64,000 nt of DNA, taken from a virus. The notes beneath the pieces are model-generated. The model searched no databases. It saw nothing but the letters and a program-made list of their open reading frames with translations, and was not told where the DNA came from. Positions within the stretch are counted from its first letter, which is position 1, and each line of letters opens with the position of its first letter. The stretch spans positions 36,284 through 100,283 of the IMG/VR virus record IMGVR_UViG_3300005253_000054; one strand, written 5' to 3'. This document shows positions 2,040 to 64,000 of the stretch, piece by piece. The translations under genes were made by a program, and so were the position numbers.

Positions 2040-2224
2040 TGCCGGTAAATAAGAGACAAAGGTCTAGGTCTAGGTCTAGGTCTGGGTCTGGGTCTGGGTC
2101 TGGGTCTAGGTCTAGGTCTGGGTCTGGGTCTGGGTCTGGGTCTGGGTCTGGGTCTAGGTCTGGGTCTGGGTCTGGGTCTAGGTCTAGGTCTTGGTCTTGG
2201 TCTTGGTCTAGGTCTGGGTCTTGA
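2033..2224 (+). CDS. RS/GS/WS dipeptide-repeat peptide
   Basis: ATG overlaps the end of the upstream gene; 27 X-Ser dipeptides. Confidence 0.55.
   Translation: MLMPVNKRQRSRSRSRSGSGSGSGSRSRSGSGSGSGSGSGSRSGSGSGSRSRSWSWSWSRSGS
2060..2221 (+). repeat. (NGGTCT)27 tandem hexamer
   Basis: Units are AGGTCT, GGGTCT or TGGTCT; only the first base varies. Confidence 0.95.
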
Positions 2225-2271
2225 GTTGTTTACGTATTTTTTAATTCTAATTAACTAAGGGAGACGAAAAG

Positions 2272-3708
2272 ATGAGTACATTGCAGATTGAGCGTGGATT
2301 AGCTGTGGAATTGCTAGTGGCAATTGGATTCAAGACGGCGGGACAAATGAAGGATGGGAAGCTGAATAAGAAGATTTGCCAGTTGGATAAGATTGGCAAG
2401 CCTGATGACGCTGTGTTGGATGAGGATCAGGAATCCCTGCTGGCCGAAATTTTGCAAACGATTGAGGATGGGGATAAGATTACTTTGGTTGATGAACTCC
2501 CTCCGGACACCGCTGATGATGATGCTGATACTGATACTGATGTTGACGGAGAAGGTGAGGATACTCCCGAAACTGTTAGTGACAATGATAGAGAAGAGGG
2601 GGAGGATACCCCTGATCCTAAACCAAAGAAGAAGGGGAGAGGACGGCCGAGGGGTTCTAAGAACAAGGATGGTGGGGAGAAGCCTGAGAAGAAAAATGTG
2701 CCGGAAGATGTTATTGGCGACGATGTTTTGTATAGTGAGGTATCTTCTGGTATCGAACTTGTTACGGCGAAGAGAGCCAAAAAGTTGCTAGGTTGGAAGG
2801 AAGAGGCGGACGATGAAGATTTCGGCAGTAGCTTTCTTTACCGAGGATTGAATAAGAAGAAAGTCCGTTGTGCAAATGTGCTTTCTAATCGACCATTTCG
2901 ATTGGCTATTGCCAAACGATATGCAAATGAGATTCTACGTGGAAAGTGGAAACTTAATGGCGAGTCTGTAATTATTGACAGGTTGGGGCAGGTTCAGGAC
3001 GCACAACATCGGCTGGTTGGTCTTGTACTGGCCGAAGACATGCGACAAGACGACGAGGAGAAGTGGGGAGAAAAGTCTGTTGCAATAGAGACGATAATCG
3101 TTCTCGGTATTGAAGAGAGTAAGGGGGTTGTTGATACTCTCAACCTCGGTCTGAAACGATCCTTGAAGGATGTTCTATTTCGCAACCAGGAAATTGTGCC
3201 TGATGAAAATTCCAATGTGAAAAAGAAATTGTCGGGTGTTCTGGCTGGTGCTGTTCGGTTGGCTTGGTTGTATGGCTCTGGCCGAAAGGTATCTGATGCC
3301 CCACACTTTCCGCATAGCGAAGCCCTGGATTTTCTGGCGGATAATCCTGATATCGTTTTGACGGCAGAGCGGATTACCGATTTGAACGATAGCGGTGATG
3401 AGAAGAATCGTATTAGTAGTTACATCACACTTGCGTATGCTACTGGTCTGGCCTATCTAATGGAAGAGGCCAGAAGTGAAGAGGATTCTACAGAATTTTG
3501 GACGGCTTTTGCTGATGGTAGTAAGAAAATGCACCCTGTTCGATTGGCATTAAATAGTGTTGCGACCAGCACAGGTTATGGTCGTGATGCTGTGGTAAGT
3601 GTGATTTTCAAGGCATTCAATCTGATGACAGCAGGAGAAGAGATTACAGCAAAGGCAGTTAAGCCGAAGAAGGGTAAGTTGGTAACGATTGCTGGGGAGG
3701 AGAAGTAG
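2272..3708 (+). CDS. ParB/DGQHR-like domain protein with AT-hook and acidic linker
   Basis: NRPF..YANEILRGKWKLNGE..QDAQHRL motif; KGRGRPRGSKNK AT-hook-like motif. Confidence 0.65.
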   Translation: MSTLQIERGLAVELLVAIGFKTAGQMKDGKLNKKICQLDKIGKPDDAVLDEDQESLLAEILQTIEDGDKITLVDELPPDTADDDADTDTDVDGEGEDTPETVSDNDREEGEDTPDPKPKKKGRGRPRGSKNKDGGEKPEKKNVPEDVIGDDVLYSEVSSGIELVTAKRAKKLLGWKEEADDEDFGSSFLYRGLNKKKVRCANVLSNRPFRLAIAKRYANEILRGKWKLNGESVIIDRLGQVQDAQHRLVGLVLAEDMRQDDEEKWGEKSVAIETIIVLGIEESKGVVDTLNLGLKRSLKDVLFRNQEIVPDENSNVKKKLSGVLAGAVRLAWLYGSGRKVSDAPHFPHSEALDFLADNPDIVLTAERITDLNDSGDEKNRISSYITLAYATGLAYLMEEARSEEDSTEFWTAFADGSKKMHPVRLALNSVATSTGYGRDAVVSVIFKAFNLMTAGEEITAKAVKPKKGKLVTIAGEEK

Positions 3709-3709
3709 A

Positions 3710-4723
3710 ATGAAACTCAATAGAGAAGCTTTGTTGCAAAAGTTGCAATCTATTTCCCCGGGCTTATCGACAAAGGATGTAATCGAGCAATCGTCCACCT
3801 ACGTTTTCAAGGATGGTCGAATCATTACGTTCAATGACGAGGTGTCTTGTAGCATTGACAGCCCTATCGAAGATGCAGAATGCTCCGTGCCATCCAAACC
3901 TTTGCTTAGTATCCTTGAAAAACTCAAGGATGAAGAAATTACAGTGGAAGTTACGGATGATTATTTCTGTGTCAAAGGTAAGAATAACAGAACCCGAATC
4001 AGGATGGATAAGGAAATCCTACTTCCAATCGAGGCGGTAGAACCACCTGATAAGTGGAAGAAACTACCATCTGATTTCTGTGAGGCCGTCGGATTGGTTC
4101 AGACTTGTGCTGGTGATGATGCTAGTGATTTCAAAATGACATGTGTTAGGATCACTAACAAATACTTGGAGGCATGCGATAATCATCAGATGATTCGATG
4201 GAATACGGAGACACCTATTAAGGATTGTCTTCTCAAAAGCGGATCGGTTAAACACGTCTCTCGGTTGGGTATGTCCAAGGCATCCGTTACTGATAGTTGG
4301 GTTCACTTCAAAAACGAAACTGGATTGGTATTGAGTTGTCGAAAATGGAACAATGAGGATTACCCCGATCTTAGTGAGATTCTAAAGACTACTGGAGTTA
4401 AGTCTGTACTGCCTGTTGGATTGGGCGAGGCTGTGGAAAGGGCCTCTGTTTTCTGCGAATCGGATATTACCAGTGGCTCGGTGGAGGTGAAGATTAAAGG
4501 ATCGAAATTGGTATTGAAAAGCTACGGTCCTTACGGAGATTATGAAGAGCGTACGAAGATCAAGTATGATGGGGAGCCAATGCGATTTCGTGCGTCCCCG
4601 AGGTTGTTAGCTGCCATCGCTTCACGTACGAAGGATTGTATTCTAACCGAGACGCGGTTGAAGACGGAGACGGATAAATGGACTTGTGTTGTTTGTCTTG
4701 CGAGAGTTGGGAAGGATGAGTGA
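3710..4723 (+). CDS. DNA polymerase sliding clamp (beta-like)
   Basis: MKLNREALLQKL N-terminus, ACDNHQM and EDYPD motifs, ~337 aa; clamp loader present in the window. Confidence 0.75.
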   Translation: MKLNREALLQKLQSISPGLSTKDVIEQSSTYVFKDGRIITFNDEVSCSIDSPIEDAECSVPSKPLLSILEKLKDEEITVEVTDDYFCVKGKNNRTRIRMDKEILLPIEAVEPPDKWKKLPSDFCEAVGLVQTCAGDDASDFKMTCVRITNKYLEACDNHQMIRWNTETPIKDCLLKSGSVKHVSRLGMSKASVTDSWVHFKNETGLVLSCRKWNNEDYPDLSEILKTTGVKSVLPVGLGEAVERASVFCESDITSGSVEVKIKGSKLVLKSYGPYGDYEERTKIKYDGEPMRFRASPRLLAAIASRTKDCILTETRLKTETDKWTCVVCLARVGKDE

Positions 4724-4802
4724 TGTTTGATTACTAGATATTTTTGGTTTCGTTGTTACTCTGTTACTGTGTATGAACTTTATTTTTTGGAAGGGGTTTG
4801 TC

Positions 4803-5315
4803 ATGTTTCGATTATGTTTAGTGTTTTTGGTGTTGCTAGTTACTAGGTCAGTTTTGGCAGTTGACGGTCCGATTCCTGAGCCATCATCTGATGTGGGAAC
4901 CATTCATATCGGACCAGAGAATTCAGGTGTTTCTCCTGATGATGTATTGGGCGATTATGAGCAGGATGGAGTAACCAACGGAAGAAATCATTACTTTAAT
5001 GGGGAGTATTTTTTGTGGTGGCAGCCTGCTGCTGATCTTAATATTTGGCTTTTGACGGACACACCAGGAGTAGATGGAAATGCCGCTGTTTGGGTACAAA
5101 TCAATGTTGACGAAAATCAAGCTGTAGATGCTAGTCCGTATTACCCATCTACTAATGCTTCTGGTCCCAATCTCCGGGCAGCAATCAAGCCAATCCCCGA
5201 ACCCTCAACCTTTACCCTCGCCGCCCTTGGCTTTTTGTCATTGGCGTTCTATGGCCGGTGGAGAAGGAAGACTAGTCTATTGGAGCAGATATCCCAAACT
5301 GTTAGGATAAATTGA
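4803..5315 (+). CDS. Secreted PEP-CTERM-sorted protein
   Basis: Signal peptide MFRLCLVFLVLLVTRSVLA; C-terminal IPEPSTFTLAALGFLSLAFYGRWRRK (PEP, TM helix, basic tail). Confidence 0.85.
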   Translation: MFRLCLVFLVLLVTRSVLAVDGPIPEPSSDVGTIHIGPENSGVSPDDVLGDYEQDGVTNGRNHYFNGEYFLWWQPAADLNIWLLTDTPGVDGNAAVWVQINVDENQAVDASPYYPSTNASGPNLRAAIKPIPEPSTFTLAALGFLSLAFYGRWRRKTSLLEQISQTVRIN

Positions 5316-5549
5316 CTGCTTCAGCATTGTAGGCGGGTTACCTACATACGTTTTGTGGATGATAAGGGATGAATAATGTCCTACATACTTCGTGAGAATA
5401 CTGAAGAAGAATGTTGGGAAATCCTGGATATAAAAAGTGAACAATCCCACGATGGGCTAGTAGCAGCAGTATATATCGCTTTGGTATACGATTTTGACAG
5501 GGCACAAGTAATTTTGGATTTGTTGAATACCTATGCATAAGGATTATCA

Positions 5550-6731
5550 ATGCCCGGTTTCTTCACCCCAGACCAGATAAGCACCACCCCGGTCATCCCG
5601 CGATGCCCCTCTTGTGGTTTGCGATACAAGTGCAACTCGCCTAGTATGCCCTACACTGGGGAGGGTAAGAGACGTGTCCTAATCGTCGCAGAGGCCCCCG
5701 GTAGGGATGAGGATCAAGAGGGTACCCAACTCATTGGGAAGTCGGGGAAGCATTTAAGACGCATCCTCGCGAAGCTGGGGGTGGATTTGGACCGAGACTG
5801 TTGGAAAACCAACGCTCTTACCTGTTGGCCTGGGGAAGGGAATCCCAAACCTACCGATAAACAAATCAGCTATTGCCGAGCTAATCTCTTACGAACTATC
5901 CAAGAGTTGGAACCCATTACCATCATTCTATTAGGTGGTACGGCTGTCAAGAGTTTGATAGGCTACGTTTGGAAAGAGGCCGTTGGTAGGATCGGTCGAT
6001 GGGTAGGATGGCAGATACCCGATAGACGATTCAATACTTGGATTTGTCCGACGTGGCATCCATCCTATTTGCTACGACAGGATGATAAGGTTCTGGAGTT
6101 GTGGTTTCGTAGGCATCTAAAGGCTGCTTTTGAGAAAGAGGGGAAGCCTTATGTAGATACTGGTCTGAGATATGTTCCTGACGTATTTATAGAACATGAT
6201 CCGAAAACAATAGTAAAATTAGTCGATGATTTTATTTGGATCAATAAACCACTTGCTTTTGATTACGAGACAACCAGTATAAAGCCAGAGGGGGATTGGG
6301 CTGAGATTGTTTGTTGTTCTTTTAGTGATGGAGAAGACACGTTCGCGTTCCCTTGGCAGGGTGAAGCAATCCCAGCGATGGGCCGACTGCTGAGAAGCAA
6401 AGTACCCAAGATTGCATGGAATCTGAAAATGGAAGACCGTTGGACGCGGAAAGAATTTGGCCATCCCGTTAGGAATTGGTTGTGGTGTGGGATGCAAAAC
6501 TCCCATATCCTAGATAACAGACGTGGGATAACTTCTCTCAAGTTTCAAGCATACGTGCAACTAGGTCAAGAGTCCTATGACAATCATATCAAACCTTTTC
6601 TAAAAGGTAAACCGGGACAGGCGAATCGGATTAGGGAAGTAGATACTGACAAATTGCTAAGGTATTGCGGGATGGATTCGTTAAATGCTTTTGAGATTGC
6701 AATGAAACAAATGGAGATAATGGGGATGTAA
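5550..6731 (+). CDS. Family-4 uracil-DNA glycosylase fused to PolA-type 3'-5' exonuclease (N-terminal part of a split polymerase)
   Basis: CPSCGL..C, AEAPGRDED and TWHPSYLLR (UDG); FDYET, WNLKMED and YCGMD (ExoI-III). Confidence 0.85.
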   Translation: MPGFFTPDQISTTPVIPRCPSCGLRYKCNSPSMPYTGEGKRRVLIVAEAPGRDEDQEGTQLIGKSGKHLRRILAKLGVDLDRDCWKTNALTCWPGEGNPKPTDKQISYCRANLLRTIQELEPITIILLGGTAVKSLIGYVWKEAVGRIGRWVGWQIPDRRFNTWICPTWHPSYLLRQDDKVLELWFRRHLKAAFEKEGKPYVDTGLRYVPDVFIEHDPKTIVKLVDDFIWINKPLAFDYETTSIKPEGDWAEIVCCSFSDGEDTFAFPWQGEAIPAMGRLLRSKVPKIAWNLKMEDRWTRKEFGHPVRNWLWCGMQNSHILDNRRGITSLKFQAYVQLGQESYDNHIKPFLKGKPGQANRIREVDTDKLLRYCGMDSLNAFEIAMKQMEIMGM

Positions 6732-7460: not shown

Positions 7461-7655
7461 ATGACGGATGAGGAATCTAAACGATTCGAGAAACAGAAAA
7501 TCCCGTTTGGTGAATTCGAGAATCTTACTGTTGACAAGATATTTTTCAATGAAGAGTTAAGAAGTCGATTGGAATGGTACGCGGATGAGGAATCGTTTGT
7601 AGACAAATTGAGGCGGTACTTAAATTCAGATAGGGTGAAGAGGTTATTACGATGA
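7461..7655 (+). CDS. Hypothetical protein (IPFGEF motif)
   Basis: Stop codon overlaps the polymerase start (ATGA). Confidence 0.5.
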   Translation: MTDEESKRFEKQKIPFGEFENLTVDKIFFNEELRSRLEWYADEESFVDKLRRYLNSDRVKRLLR

Positions 7656-9061
7656 AACCCGCAACACCCCAAGCAATGGAATTGATGATGAAAGGGGCCA
7701 TAGCCTTATCTCAAGTAGAGGCGGACGGGATGCGGATCGACGTTGATTATCTTGATAAGACCATCAAAAAAGTTACGAGGAATATCGCACGACAGACAGA
7801 GAAGCTAAAGGAATCAGAGGAGTGGAAAGTTTGGAAGAAACTCTATGGAAGCAAAATGTCCTTAGAGAGTGGACCACAGTTAGGCAAAGTTCTGTTCGAC
7901 AAGATGGGTCACAAGTGTATAGCCAGAACGAAAACGGGCAAGCCAGCAACGGACCAGACTGCTTTGGAGCAACTAGACATCCCATTCGTAAGGAGATTGT
8001 TGAGCATTAAGAAGAAAAAGAAGATGCTCAGCACGAATCTCAAAGGAATCAGACGTGAGGTAGTAGATGGTATTGTAAGACCTTCATTCAATTTGCACCT
8101 TGTTACTACATACCGATCAAGTGCTGATCGTCCTAACTCAAAAAATATACCAGTTAGGGATAAGAAGATAGGGAGGATGGTACGAAAGGCGTTCATTCCG
8201 AGGGATGGTCATGTTTTGGTAGAGATTGATTACTCTGCCGTAGAATTTAGGGTTGCATCGTGTTTTTGGCAAGATGAGGCAATGGTAGACTATGCCAGTA
8301 ATCCCAATAAGGATATTCATAGGGATATGGCTGCCGAGTGTTATATGCTGAGAGAAGAGCAAGTAACAAAGGATGCCAGATTCTATGCTAAGAATCAATT
8401 TGTTTTTCCAGAGTTGTACGGTAGTTGGTATGGACAATGTGCCATAAATTTATGGGATGCCATTGGAAAAGGAAAGTTGGAAGTTGGTATGACAGATGAT
8501 GAGGAGTGTCGATGGTGTGGTGTGGGTTGTCGTAGTGATGTATGTTCAGTTTGTGGGGGAAAGCAGAAACGGGGATTGAAAGATCACCTGAATTCTAAAG
8601 GGATTACGGGTGTAGAGGGATTCAAAAGGGTTGTTCAAGATGCAGAGAATACTTTTAATGAGATGTTTCACGTATATAACGAAAAGAAAGAGGAATGGTG
8701 GGAAACCTATCTGAAAAGGGGTTATATTCGTTTGATGACCGGGTTTGTTTGTCAGGGAGTTATGAGTCGCAATAAGGTTTACAATTACCCCACTCAAGGT
8801 CCGGGTTTCCACTGTTTGCTTTGGTCCCTGATTCAGATGGTAAAGCGATTGCGAAAGGTGAAGTCGATGGTGATTGGAGAAATATACGATAGCCTTATCT
8901 TGGACGTACATAGGTCTGAGTTGGACGATGTTTTGCAAATGGCTAAACAAGTGATGACGGTCGATTTGTTGAAAGCGTGGGACTGGATTATTTGCCCTAT
9001 GGAAATCGAGGCTGAGGTTGGCGAGGAAAATTGGGCAGATAAGAAAGAGGTGGAGATATGA
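7652..9061 (+). CDS. polA: Family A DNA polymerase, polymerase domain only
   Basis: RSSADRPNSKNIP, motif A EIDYSAVEFRV, DIHRDMA, motif B RFYAKNQFVFPELYG, NYPTQG, motif C EIYDS. Confidence 0.9.
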   Translation: MKPATPQAMELMMKGAIALSQVEADGMRIDVDYLDKTIKKVTRNIARQTEKLKESEEWKVWKKLYGSKMSLESGPQLGKVLFDKMGHKCIARTKTGKPATDQTALEQLDIPFVRRLLSIKKKKKMLSTNLKGIRREVVDGIVRPSFNLHLVTTYRSSADRPNSKNIPVRDKKIGRMVRKAFIPRDGHVLVEIDYSAVEFRVASCFWQDEAMVDYASNPNKDIHRDMAAECYMLREEQVTKDARFYAKNQFVFPELYGSWYGQCAINLWDAIGKGKLEVGMTDDEECRWCGVGCRSDVCSVCGGKQKRGLKDHLNSKGITGVEGFKRVVQDAENTFNEMFHVYNEKKEEWWETYLKRGYIRLMTGFVCQGVMSRNKVYNYPTQGPGFHCLLWSLIQMVKRLRKVKSMVIGEIYDSLILDVHRSELDDVLQMAKQVMTVDLLKAWDWIICPMEIEAEVGEENWADKKEVEI

Positions 9062-62694: not shown

Positions 62695-63972
62695 ATGGCT
62701 AATAGAAGTTTGACAAGCCCCAAGGTGACGTTGCAAGTTCAAGCGACCATCAACAACACGATGGATGATGGCGTGGTAGCCTCCGGTGCAATGAACGGCA
62801 ACGTTAGTGATACGCTTACAAATGGTGTTAGTGTGGCACAAGCTAACAGGGCTTTTCAGTGGAAGAATAAAACTTTGGACGTTGGTGACCCTCTTGACTT
62901 TGATGTGTACAACTTTACCGGATTGGATCAAGGTTCCGGGAATCAGAATGATGTAGTGGGCCAGGATCTTATCATGGAAGAGATCGTGTCCATTATGATT
63001 GTGAATGAGAACGCGGAGGGAACTGCTGGGGAATTGGAGATTTCTCCTAGTAGTGTGAATGGCTGGACTCCGATTGGAACGCATACATTAGCAACTCTTG
63101 GTTTCTTACGGGCACAGGCGGTGCTTGCGAAACATCAACCGGATACGGACGCCTTCCCGGTGACGAATGGTAGCAATCATAGAATTCGTTTGCGGGCTTT
63201 GACTGCTACGGTAACCTACAGTATTTACATATTGGGCAGACATGATGACGACGAATCTAGTTCGTCAATTAGTACGTCGTCGTCAAGCAGTTCAATTAGC
63301 ACATCTAGTTCATCACAAAGCTCGATTAGTACGTCTAGTTCATCACAAAGCTCAATCAGCACTAGTTCCAGTTCGATTAGCACCAGTTCAATTTCTACAT
63401 CGTCTGTCAGTTCTGTTAGCTCTGTTTCGACGTCGAGTGTATCGTCATTGTCAAGCAGTTCAATTAGTACGTCAAGCAGTTCGATTAGCACATCCTCGGT
63501 CAGTTCGATTAGTACGTCGTCATCAAGTATCAGTACGTCATCATTAAGTTCATCATCTGATGTGGGAACCGTTCATATTGGTCCTGCTAACTCCGGTGTT
63601 TCTCCTGCTGATGTGTTGGGTGATTATACAGCGGTCGGTACGACTAATGGTAGAACTCATTATAGTAACGGAACTTATTTCCTTTGGTGGCAGTCTGCTG
63701 CTAGTCTTAACATTTGGCTTTTGACGGATACAGCAGGAAATGATGGAACAGCAGCAGTTTGGGTACAAACTACTGGTGGTGAAAACCAAGCTGTTGATGC
63801 TAGTGATTATTCACCATCTACTGGTGCTACTGGCCCCGATCTTTGGGCTGCAATAAATCCAACAGATGAATCTTCATCGTACTCGTCGTTGTCGTCTTCG
63901 TCTAGTATTAGCACATCTTCAGTTAGTACATCCAGCAGTAGTGTATCCAGTAGCAGCAGTCTACTTCCTTAA
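62695..63972 (+). CDS. Putative virion protein: N-terminal domain, Ser-rich linker, and a domain shared with the PEP-CTERM protein
   Basis: Located in the tail gene cluster; 63553-63861 aligns ungapped with 4884-5192. Confidence 0.8.
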   Translation: MANRSLTSPKVTLQVQATINNTMDDGVVASGAMNGNVSDTLTNGVSVAQANRAFQWKNKTLDVGDPLDFDVYNFTGLDQGSGNQNDVVGQDLIMEEIVSIMIVNENAEGTAGELEISPSSVNGWTPIGTHTLATLGFLRAQAVLAKHQPDTDAFPVTNGSNHRIRLRALTATVTYSIYILGRHDDDESSSSISTSSSSSSISTSSSSQSSISTSSSSQSSISTSSSSISTSSISTSSVSSVSSVSTSSVSSLSSSSISTSSSSISTSSVSSISTSSSSISTSSLSSSSDVGTVHIGPANSGVSPADVLGDYTAVGTTNGRTHYSNGTYFLWWQSAASLNIWLLTDTAGNDGTAAVWVQTTGGENQAVDASDYSPSTGATGPDLWAAINPTDESSSYSSLSSSSSISTSSVSTSSSSVSSSSSLLP

Positions 63973-64000
63973 TAGGAGTCTAAATAATGACTAGTGAAAA

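Follow-up and report, generated by a model that had tools for sequence, protein, structure and literature searches.

The phage genome and its modules

The DNA analysed here, referred to as the window, makes up the final 64 kb of a virus record of 100,283 bp. The first 122 bases of the record recur at its end; the record is assigned to the class with direct terminal repeats, and its estimated completeness is 100%. The window is part of a complete tailed-phage genome of 100 kb that is lytic-looking, and all of its long ORFs lie on the + strand. PHROG matches define two modules. The replication module contains a helicase, a sliding clamp, a two-part DNA polymerase, a clamp loader and a UvsX-like recombinase. 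The morphogenesis module contains a portal (49513), a MuF-like protein (53224), a protease/scaffold (57497) and the major capsid protein (59310), and it runs on across the ends of the record to a tape-measure gene at genome positions 2160–4466. The DNA polymerase (phrog_17) is split over two ORFs, 5550–6731 and 7652–9061, which correspond to profile positions 477–826 and 835–1237 and are separated by ∼0.9 kb of small ORFs.

DNA of this phage is present in marine-sediment metagenome runs from two studies; no RNA run was among those listed. A host flank was sought at the ends of G006, a relative classed as a provirus, and none was seen. A tblastn search of INPHARED gave no match for the capsid protein, for the N-terminal domain of the 425-aa protein described later in the text or for a 212-aa ORF. 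Two genes concern us here, one in each module, which share a domain that we call X (Table 1).

Table 1. Coordinates of the features discussed, in positions of the window
Feature	Positions	Strand	Remarks
Sliding clamp (DNA polymerase processivity factor)	3689–4723	+	phrog_947, E 2.6e-33; upstream neighbour of the PEP-CTERM gene
Shine–Dalgarno-like GGAAGGGG	4790–4797	+	5 nt before the ATG at 4803; read from the sequence; kept in L004
Predicted signal peptide MFRLCLVFLVLLVTRSVLA	4803–4859	+	Cleavage inferred after VLA, before VDG; inspection and hydropathy only
Linker VDGPIPEP	4860–4883	+	With the next Ser forms PIPEPS, which recurs directly after X
Domain X, envelope-protein copy, 103 aa	4884–5192	+	77/103 aa identical to 63553–63861
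PEP-CTERM region IPEPSTFTLAALGFLSLAFYGRWRRK	5193–5270	+	PF07589; GC3 0.69
Atypical C-terminal extension TSLLEQISQTVRIN and stop codon	5271–5315	+	Counterpart in L004/P0002: TGLLEQIPQTVRIN
Terminator-like hairpin with T-rich tail	5328–5356	+	Directly after the gene; consensus scan only
DNA polymerase, N-terminal part	5550–6731	+	phrog_17, E 5.3e-27; downstream neighbour of the PEP-CTERM gene
Jelly-roll N-domain (predicted), residues 1–185	62695–63249	+	AF2 with alignment, pLDDT 70–97; 47 + 36 homologues
Poly-Ser linker, ∼100 aa, SSISTSS-type	63250–63552	+	pLDDT <50; a tail of this kind occurs in every relative
Domain X, structural-protein copy, residues 287–389	63553–63861	+	BLASTP to the envelope copy; eight beta-strands in AF2
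C-terminal poly-Ser tail and stop codon	63862–63972	+	Identical to the tail of P0003
Tail-tube-like gene, 141 aa, start only	63986–64000	+	Runs off the window; continues at genome 108–533

A PEP-CTERM gene in the replication module

The ORF at 4803–5315 on the + strand encodes a protein of 170 aa made up of a signal peptide, an 8-residue linker, the 103-aa domain X and a PEP-CTERM tail. A sequence-only reading of this DNA had proposed the layout of signal peptide, 103-aa domain and PEP-CTERM signal, and both the ORF and a match to PF07589 above the cut-off bear it out. A second in-frame start at 4773 gives a longer ORF. Nevertheless 4803 is the likely start, because GGAAGGGG stands 5 nt before its ATG and because a 5-nt indel upstream of 4803 in the 93%-identical contig L004 shifts the upstream reading frame.

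Hydropathy in the signal-peptide region reaches 2.1–2.6 in 15-residue windows, and inspection and hydropathy indicate a signal peptide and no further membrane segment, as in PEP-CTERM proteins generally. The tail has the parts of a PEP-CTERM signal in their usual order: the PEP motif within IPEPS, a helix formed by the hydrophobic stretch TFTLAALGFLSLAFY, with a hydropathy peak of 1.67 at residues 136–150, and the basic cluster GRWRRK, behind which the protein runs on for 14 residues. PF07589 covers residues 130–155 over all 24 model positions and scores 24.6 bits, above its gathering threshold of 20.7, and in a six-frame search its match at this gene, at 28.2 bits, is the sole one in the whole genome. 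TIGR02595, the model by which the sequence-only reading had wished its assignment to be checked, is absent from the NCBIfam table of matches. The NCBIfam matches are weak ones to specific PEP-CTERM families, the best being NF038129 (E 1.5e-4, below its cut-off).

The end of the protein is less typical. The PF07589 model stops at residue 155 of 170, so that the signal does not lie at the extreme C-terminus and 15 residues follow it, whereas Haft et al. 2006 (PMC1569441) found <10 residues after the model in 87% of PEP-CTERM proteins, with a median of three. The same authors suspected that long tails after the model may mark non-functional cases (PMC1569441). The extension is kept in both lineages in which the gene is found intact, i.e. 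in this phage and in L004. A search of the phage genome with PF09721 gave no exosortase, and no PADLOC model matched.

The 425-aa protein of the morphogenesis module

The second gene, 62695–63972, encodes 425 aa. Its N-domain of ∼185 aa is followed by ∼100 aa of poly-Ser linker, then by X and finally by ∼35 aa of poly-Ser tail. In the AF2 model built with an alignment, X has eight strands and a pLDDT of mostly 76–89, with one block at 53 and a short stretch, residues 301–307, under 50. The N-domain is modelled as a generic jelly roll. Among solved structures its best fold matches are the Ena spore-appendage subunits of Bacillus (Z 7.8), the capsid proteins of satellite viruses (Z 7.0), the cement protein of Helicobacter phage KHP40 (Z 6.5, rmsd 3.9 over 108 residues, within the generic jelly-roll range of Z 5.5–7.8) and the turret protein of a Haloferax tailed virus (Z 5.9). 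All have Z <8, the range that the search tool calls a common arrangement, and Foldseek agrees. The BFVD search returned uncharacterised Caudovirales proteins only, with TM up to 0.75. These fold searches used the whole 425-aa model, and the N-domain filled the match lists. Neither the protein nor its N-domain has a Pfam or PHROG match or an NCBIfam or PADLOC family.

The protein collection contains 47 homologues of the N-domain and IMG/VR another 36, and every one of them consists of the N-domain and a pure poly-Ser tail (74–100% Ser/Thr) with no embedded domain. Because these 83 relatives carry the poly-Ser tail only, X is an inserted module in the structural protein. The insert is present in few N-domain proteins, namely that of the window, P0004, P0061 and the fragment P0003. 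The jelly-roll/poly-Ser family as a whole (L008–L043, P0012–P0058) comprises at least 80 proteins of uncultured phages with tails of 20–140 residues, and the gene is always in one slot, directly upstream of a tail-tube-like gene. The Ser/Thr tails are candidate O-glycosylation stalks. Virion glycosylation in mycobacteriophages is a subject of Freeman et al. 2023, as cited in PMC12619734.

Gene order is conserved in the relatives. After the capsid gene come three genes of ∼205, 160 and 166 aa, followed by the jelly-roll gene and by a set of ∼143, 100, 210 and 125 aa. In the window phage the tape measure is the next gene after this last set. In three relatives the gene downstream of the jelly-roll gene matches phrog_1407, ‘major tail protein’ (E 1.5e-5 to 2.3e-4), and the 141-aa product in this phage is 65% identical to one of the three (L017:3915–4343), which makes the 141-aa ORF the best candidate for the tail tube. 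Tube proteins of siphoviruses are usually larger than 141 aa. The 425-aa protein had also been considered as the tube and was dropped, given its jelly-roll fold matches and the position of the phrog_1407 match in the downstream gene of the relatives; the 50 fold matches listed for it are all jelly rolls, with no tail-tube protein among them. It is therefore a structural-module protein adjoining the putative tube gene and probably not the tube itself, and its gene position suggests that it would be present in the virion. The sequence-only reading had called it a tail-cluster protein with a putative attachment domain. Its place in the structural operon, between capsid and tape measure and upstream of the tube-like gene, agrees with this; its identity as a tail component or attachment protein finds no support in a generic jelly roll.

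Domain X, a small and hypervariable family

An exhaustive HMMER search over 1.84 billion representatives yielded eight X proteins, and a profile search of longer proteins added two. The real members are about nine, all metagenomic, and have three architectures. The first is signal peptide, X and PEP-CTERM tail, as in the window protein, its orthologue P0002 and the distant P0009, a protein of 145 aa with 33% identity and a canonical PEP-CTERM end, ...RRRRRC. The second is jelly roll, poly-Ser, X and poly-Ser. In the third, X lies between long poly-Ser/Thr linkers in the middle of proteins of 757–776 aa (P0005, P0010, P0060). The proteins of the third architecture, on ENA contigs of up to 63 kb, have no counterpart in this phage outside X. 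The domain is rich in Trp and Tyr, and many of its 14 invariant residues are aromatic.

Outside this group X is hard to find. A pattern scan of one genome each of 185,579 prokaryote species found none, a scan of IMG/VR gave none beyond this record, and a metagenome scan recovered only L004. X belongs to no Pfam, PHROG, NCBIfam or PADLOC family and has no relative in the ESM Atlas, and PDB sequence profiles gave chance matches only (a dockerin at E 0.29, and DARPins). The search for homologues of the shared domain, proposed earlier as a comparison of host and phage distributions, did find homologues, though none in the one genome scanned for each of the 185,579 prokaryote species.

Close pairs of X proteins differ in a characteristic way. 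P0004 and P0061 are 99% identical over residues 1–282 and 97% in the tail; in X they are 64% identical, and in the central part of X 43%, with indels. Likewise, the 425-aa protein of the window and P0003 have identical tails of ∼50 residues and are 52% identical in central X. The hot spot is the central 50 residues of X, about half of which differ, with indels. To judge from these comparisons, X behaves like a specificity module that is swapped or under diversifying selection. Contigs of run X4 are fragmented across the poly-Ser/X stretch. Some small extra X3 contigs there were considered as new alleles of X and rejected; their differences are exactly those of the envelope copy, which points to cross-mapping.

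Two copies of X in one phage

The copy of X in the PEP-CTERM gene is called the envelope copy here, after its predicted location, and that in the 425-aa protein the structural copy. The two align without gaps and are identical at 77/103 aa and 236/309 nt; our own count reproduces exactly the gapless alignment of 77/103 between 4884–5192 and 63553–63861 from which the sequence-only reading had set out. BLASTP of the two products (PEP-CTERM product against that of 62695–63969) gives 76/104 identities, also gapless, at E 5e-50. Of the 73 nt that differ, 38 are in third codon positions, and the Nei–Gojobori estimates are dS 0.73, dN 0.19 and dN/dS 0.25. Both copies are under purifying selection. 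That both were selected had been claimed before from the many synonymous differences, and the claim holds for the paralogues and also for the orthologues, where dN/dS is 0.36. The envelope copy retains 14/14 of the residues invariant in the family.

In the central part of X, where other members diverge most, the two copies of this phage are 72% identical and have no indels. dS is lower in this central part, at 0.41 against 1.35. The longest identical run is 18 nt, which is not significant as a sign of gene conversion between the paralogues (P 0.42), nor is the comparison of third-position differences between the two halves of X (P 0.11). Because both tests are non-significant, no conversion event is claimed from the lower central dS.

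In a tree of nine sequences the envelope copies are nearest to the structural copy of this phage, with a path of 0.37 against at least 1.0 to any other. The node joining the envelope and structural paralogues is weak (55/85) and P0009 is on a long branch. A topology uniting the three envelope-type copies in one clade is not rejected by the AU test (p-AU 0.20), and in tblastn P0009 is slightly nearer to the envelope X than to the structural X. The simplest reading of these comparisons is that the envelope X arose from, or exchanged with, this lineage's own structural copy. One phage carries both genes, and it is from this one that the argument for co-variation of envelope and particle is drawn.

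A gene of mosaic composition in a variable slot

The closest relative of the gene is in L004 (SDBV01093088.1), a metagenome contig from another data set with 93% DNA identity and the same order of clamp, then gene. The orthologue there, P0002, is intact and 89% identical in aa sequence, with dS 0.16 and dN/dS 0.36. Three other phages (L005, L006, L007) have a clamp of 43% identity, and in the gap that separates it from the polymerase (4724–5549 in the window; read around 5000–6400 in these phages) they carry DNA methyltransferases, a small membrane protein or an unrelated 123-aa ORF. Because these three relatives have other ORFs in the gap, the PEP-CTERM gene is taken to occupy a variable cargo slot. 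A PEP-CTERM match was sought in 19 related phage records, of which six are at least 90% complete, and none was found. The gene is known from two close lineages and one distant protein, and this rarity limits the weight of the finding.

The composition of the gene is uneven. GC3 is 0.37 in the signal peptide, 0.31 in X, 0.69 in the PEP-CTERM part (78 nt) and 0.36 in the C-terminal extension, with neighbouring genes at ∼0.46. In the gene for the 425-aa protein it is 0.22 in X, against 0.48 in the jelly-roll N-domain and 0.48 in the rest of the gene. The sequence PIPEPS occurs on both sides of the envelope X (4866–4886 and 5190–5210), likewise in P0002, and looks like a junction duplication left by joining X to the PEP-CTERM tail. 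The contrast in GC3, over short segments, and the PIPEPS pair are the reasons for proposing a mosaic origin; they hint that the envelope gene was assembled from pieces that differ in origin. Most likely it is a chimera in which a copy of the phage's own X acquired a signal peptide together with a PEP-CTERM tail whose composition is foreign.

Comparison with known systems

PEP-CTERM sorting is a system of Gram-negative bacteria, in organisms that have an exosortase, an outer membrane and exopolysaccharide genes. In the model of Haft et al. (PMC1569441), PEP-CTERM proteins are exported by Sec, the signal peptide is cleaved, the helix serves as a temporary anchor and an exosortase (EpsH) recognises the PEP motif. 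The phage protein has in common with them the signal peptide, PEP motif, helix and basic cluster, and also a passenger domain that belongs to no known family, which is usual for these proteins. It differs in being phage-encoded and the only such gene in its genome, where the median is eight among bacterial genomes with at least one, in the long extension after the model described earlier, and in its passenger, a paralogue of a domain from the phage's own structural module. A full-text literature search for PEP-CTERM together with phage yielded no description of such a phage gene among the matches listed. Nor did those matches describe a phage envelope protein that is paralogous to the phage's own particle-borne variable module. 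The nearest mention is of a PEP-CTERM domain in a putative Dehalococcoides element.

Phages carry several kinds of accessory genes that remodel the host surface, among them genes for lipoproteins, of which Llp and Cor are examples, and for modifiers of the O-antigen. Blockers of the T5 Llp type (PMC9586334; bioRxiv 10.64898/2026.03.26.714494) resemble the product described here in being small, exported, anchored proteins encoded outside the late operon. The proposed role is also alike, namely masking of the phage's own receptor on infected cells. The means are different. Llp, a lipoprotein, reaches FhuA from the periplasm to bind it and has no relation to the receptor-binding protein of T5, whereas here the PEP-CTERM tail would be the anchor and the predicted ectodomain is a copy of a module from the particle itself. 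In retroviruses, viral envelope protein expressed by the cell occupies the receptor and causes receptor interference. The concept is alike, but the domain of life and the machinery are different and the comparison is one of analogy only.

The tail-tube protein of phage lambda, gpV, carries a C-terminal Ig-like domain. Such accessory display domains on phage capsid and tail-tube proteins share with the 425-aa protein a plan of core fold plus flexible C-terminal extension with an optional small beta domain. In place of a tail-tube or HK97 fold the core here is a predicted jelly roll, its stalks consist of 80–90% Ser/Thr, and X of this phage has no detectable relation to Ig-like families. X and the jelly-roll/poly-Ser family, found in at least 80 uncultured phages, appear to be undescribed components of a virion module.

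Possible function and alternatives

The association of X with a PEP-CTERM signal in a phage is real, more than a chance occurrence, and unusual. It suggests that infected cells may display the phage's own binding module. Display by way of the host exosortase, with receptor masking or altered adhesion as examples of its use, had been put forward in the sequence-only reading, and the present results support that reading in part. Our tentative preference, held at somewhat less than even confidence, is that the gene is accessory cargo whose product, exported by Sec and sorted to the surface, masks on the infected cell a ligand that it shares with the phage particle. Masking of the phage's own receptor is placed first because X is fast-evolving and probably displayed on the particle, and because the cell-borne copy matches the phage's own allele. 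The course of events that we infer is as follows. The product would be exported by Sec and lose its signal peptide, and the C-terminal helix would hold it in the inner membrane with the basic cluster inside. A host exosortase, if present, would then cleave at the PEP motif and release X to the cell surface or the exopolysaccharide layer. On the particle, X would hang on poly-Ser stalks from the jelly-roll structural-module protein. X on the cell may have its envelope ligand in common with X on the particle, presumably a surface glycan or exopolysaccharide, and the masking of this ligand on infected cells could bring about superinfection exclusion and keep progeny from sticking to infected cells and debris. 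The gene sits in the replication module, outside the late operon, a position that fits early or middle expression, and T5 Llp is a precedent for early phage envelope proteins that can block a receptor (PMC9586334). A bolder form of the proposal, which we regard as speculative and would not expect to be correct in full, is that this is a phage counterpart of retroviral receptor interference, in which a matched copy of a hypervariable binding module, displayed by way of exosortase, masks the receptor.

Masking is followed in our ranking by a remodelling of adhesion or aggregation, then by a periplasmic role at the inner membrane, then by decay. As an adhesin, surface X could attach infected cells to the matrix of exopolysaccharide or to susceptible neighbours and aid local spread. 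Exopolysaccharide and the formation of flocs have been connected with PEP-CTERM proteins (PMC1569441; PMC9850573; see also Gao et al. 2018 on floc-forming PEP-CTERM proteins, as cited in PMC12642866), the source of the phage is marine sediment, and a Trp/Tyr-rich domain with invariant aromatic residues would be compatible with glycan binding. We nevertheless consider adhesion unlikely as the main role, as it leaves unexplained why the cell-borne X is closest to the phage's own particle-borne X in the hypervariable part, and the absence of the gene from 19 related phages also speaks against it. The atypical extension raises a different prospect: the protein might be no exosortase substrate at all, the helix and a 15-residue cytoplasmic tail forming an inner-membrane anchor that leaves X in the periplasm, where it might block genome entry by a second phage or bind a periplasmic glycan. 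Conservation of the extension in two lineages would be in keeping with this, as would the absence of exosortase from the phage and of PEP-CTERM genes from related phages that possibly share its host types. Against it, the PEP motif, helix and basic cluster score above a curated Pfam cut-off and P0009 pairs X with a canonical PEP-CTERM end, so that the pairing recurs; we think such an anchor rather improbable.

The origin of the gene could also be the reverse of that proposed, in keeping with the alternative named in the sequence-only reading. A host PEP-CTERM protein with X would have been captured, and the structural protein would afterwards have received a copy of X in its poly-Ser tail, by which particles could adhere to the same matrix. 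No X relative came to light in the pattern scan of one genome per prokaryote species, all other X proteins are of phage type with poly-Ser linkers, and the composition of the PEP-CTERM part is unlike that of X, which argues against joint arrival as one host gene. In favour of capture from a host is P0009, with its signal peptide, X and canonical PEP-CTERM end on a long separate branch; the unrejected clade of three envelope-type copies and the slight tblastn preference of P0009 for the envelope copy point the same way, as does the status of X as an insert of lower GC3 in the structural protein. On balance such a capture seems to us improbable. Least credible of all is a decaying duplicate with no function, a stray X fused by chance to hydrophobic ends. 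The X family is tiny and most relatives lack the gene, as such a duplicate would lead one to expect, but the frame is intact, dN/dS is low against both paralogue and orthologue, every invariant residue is kept, and a predicted ribosome-binding site and terminator-like hairpin are present; we give this reading very little credence.

Should masking of the phage's own receptor by the surface copy of X be confirmed, one more sorting pathway would be known to be exploited by phages, along with a simple route by which a phage may mask its own receptor. The PEP-CTERM gene would also be a sequence marker predicting an exosortase-bearing, exopolysaccharide-producing host for a lineage of uncultured sediment phages. 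If the proposal is true, the pairing of X with PEP-CTERM in the very distant P0009 would represent a recurrent or ancient solution.
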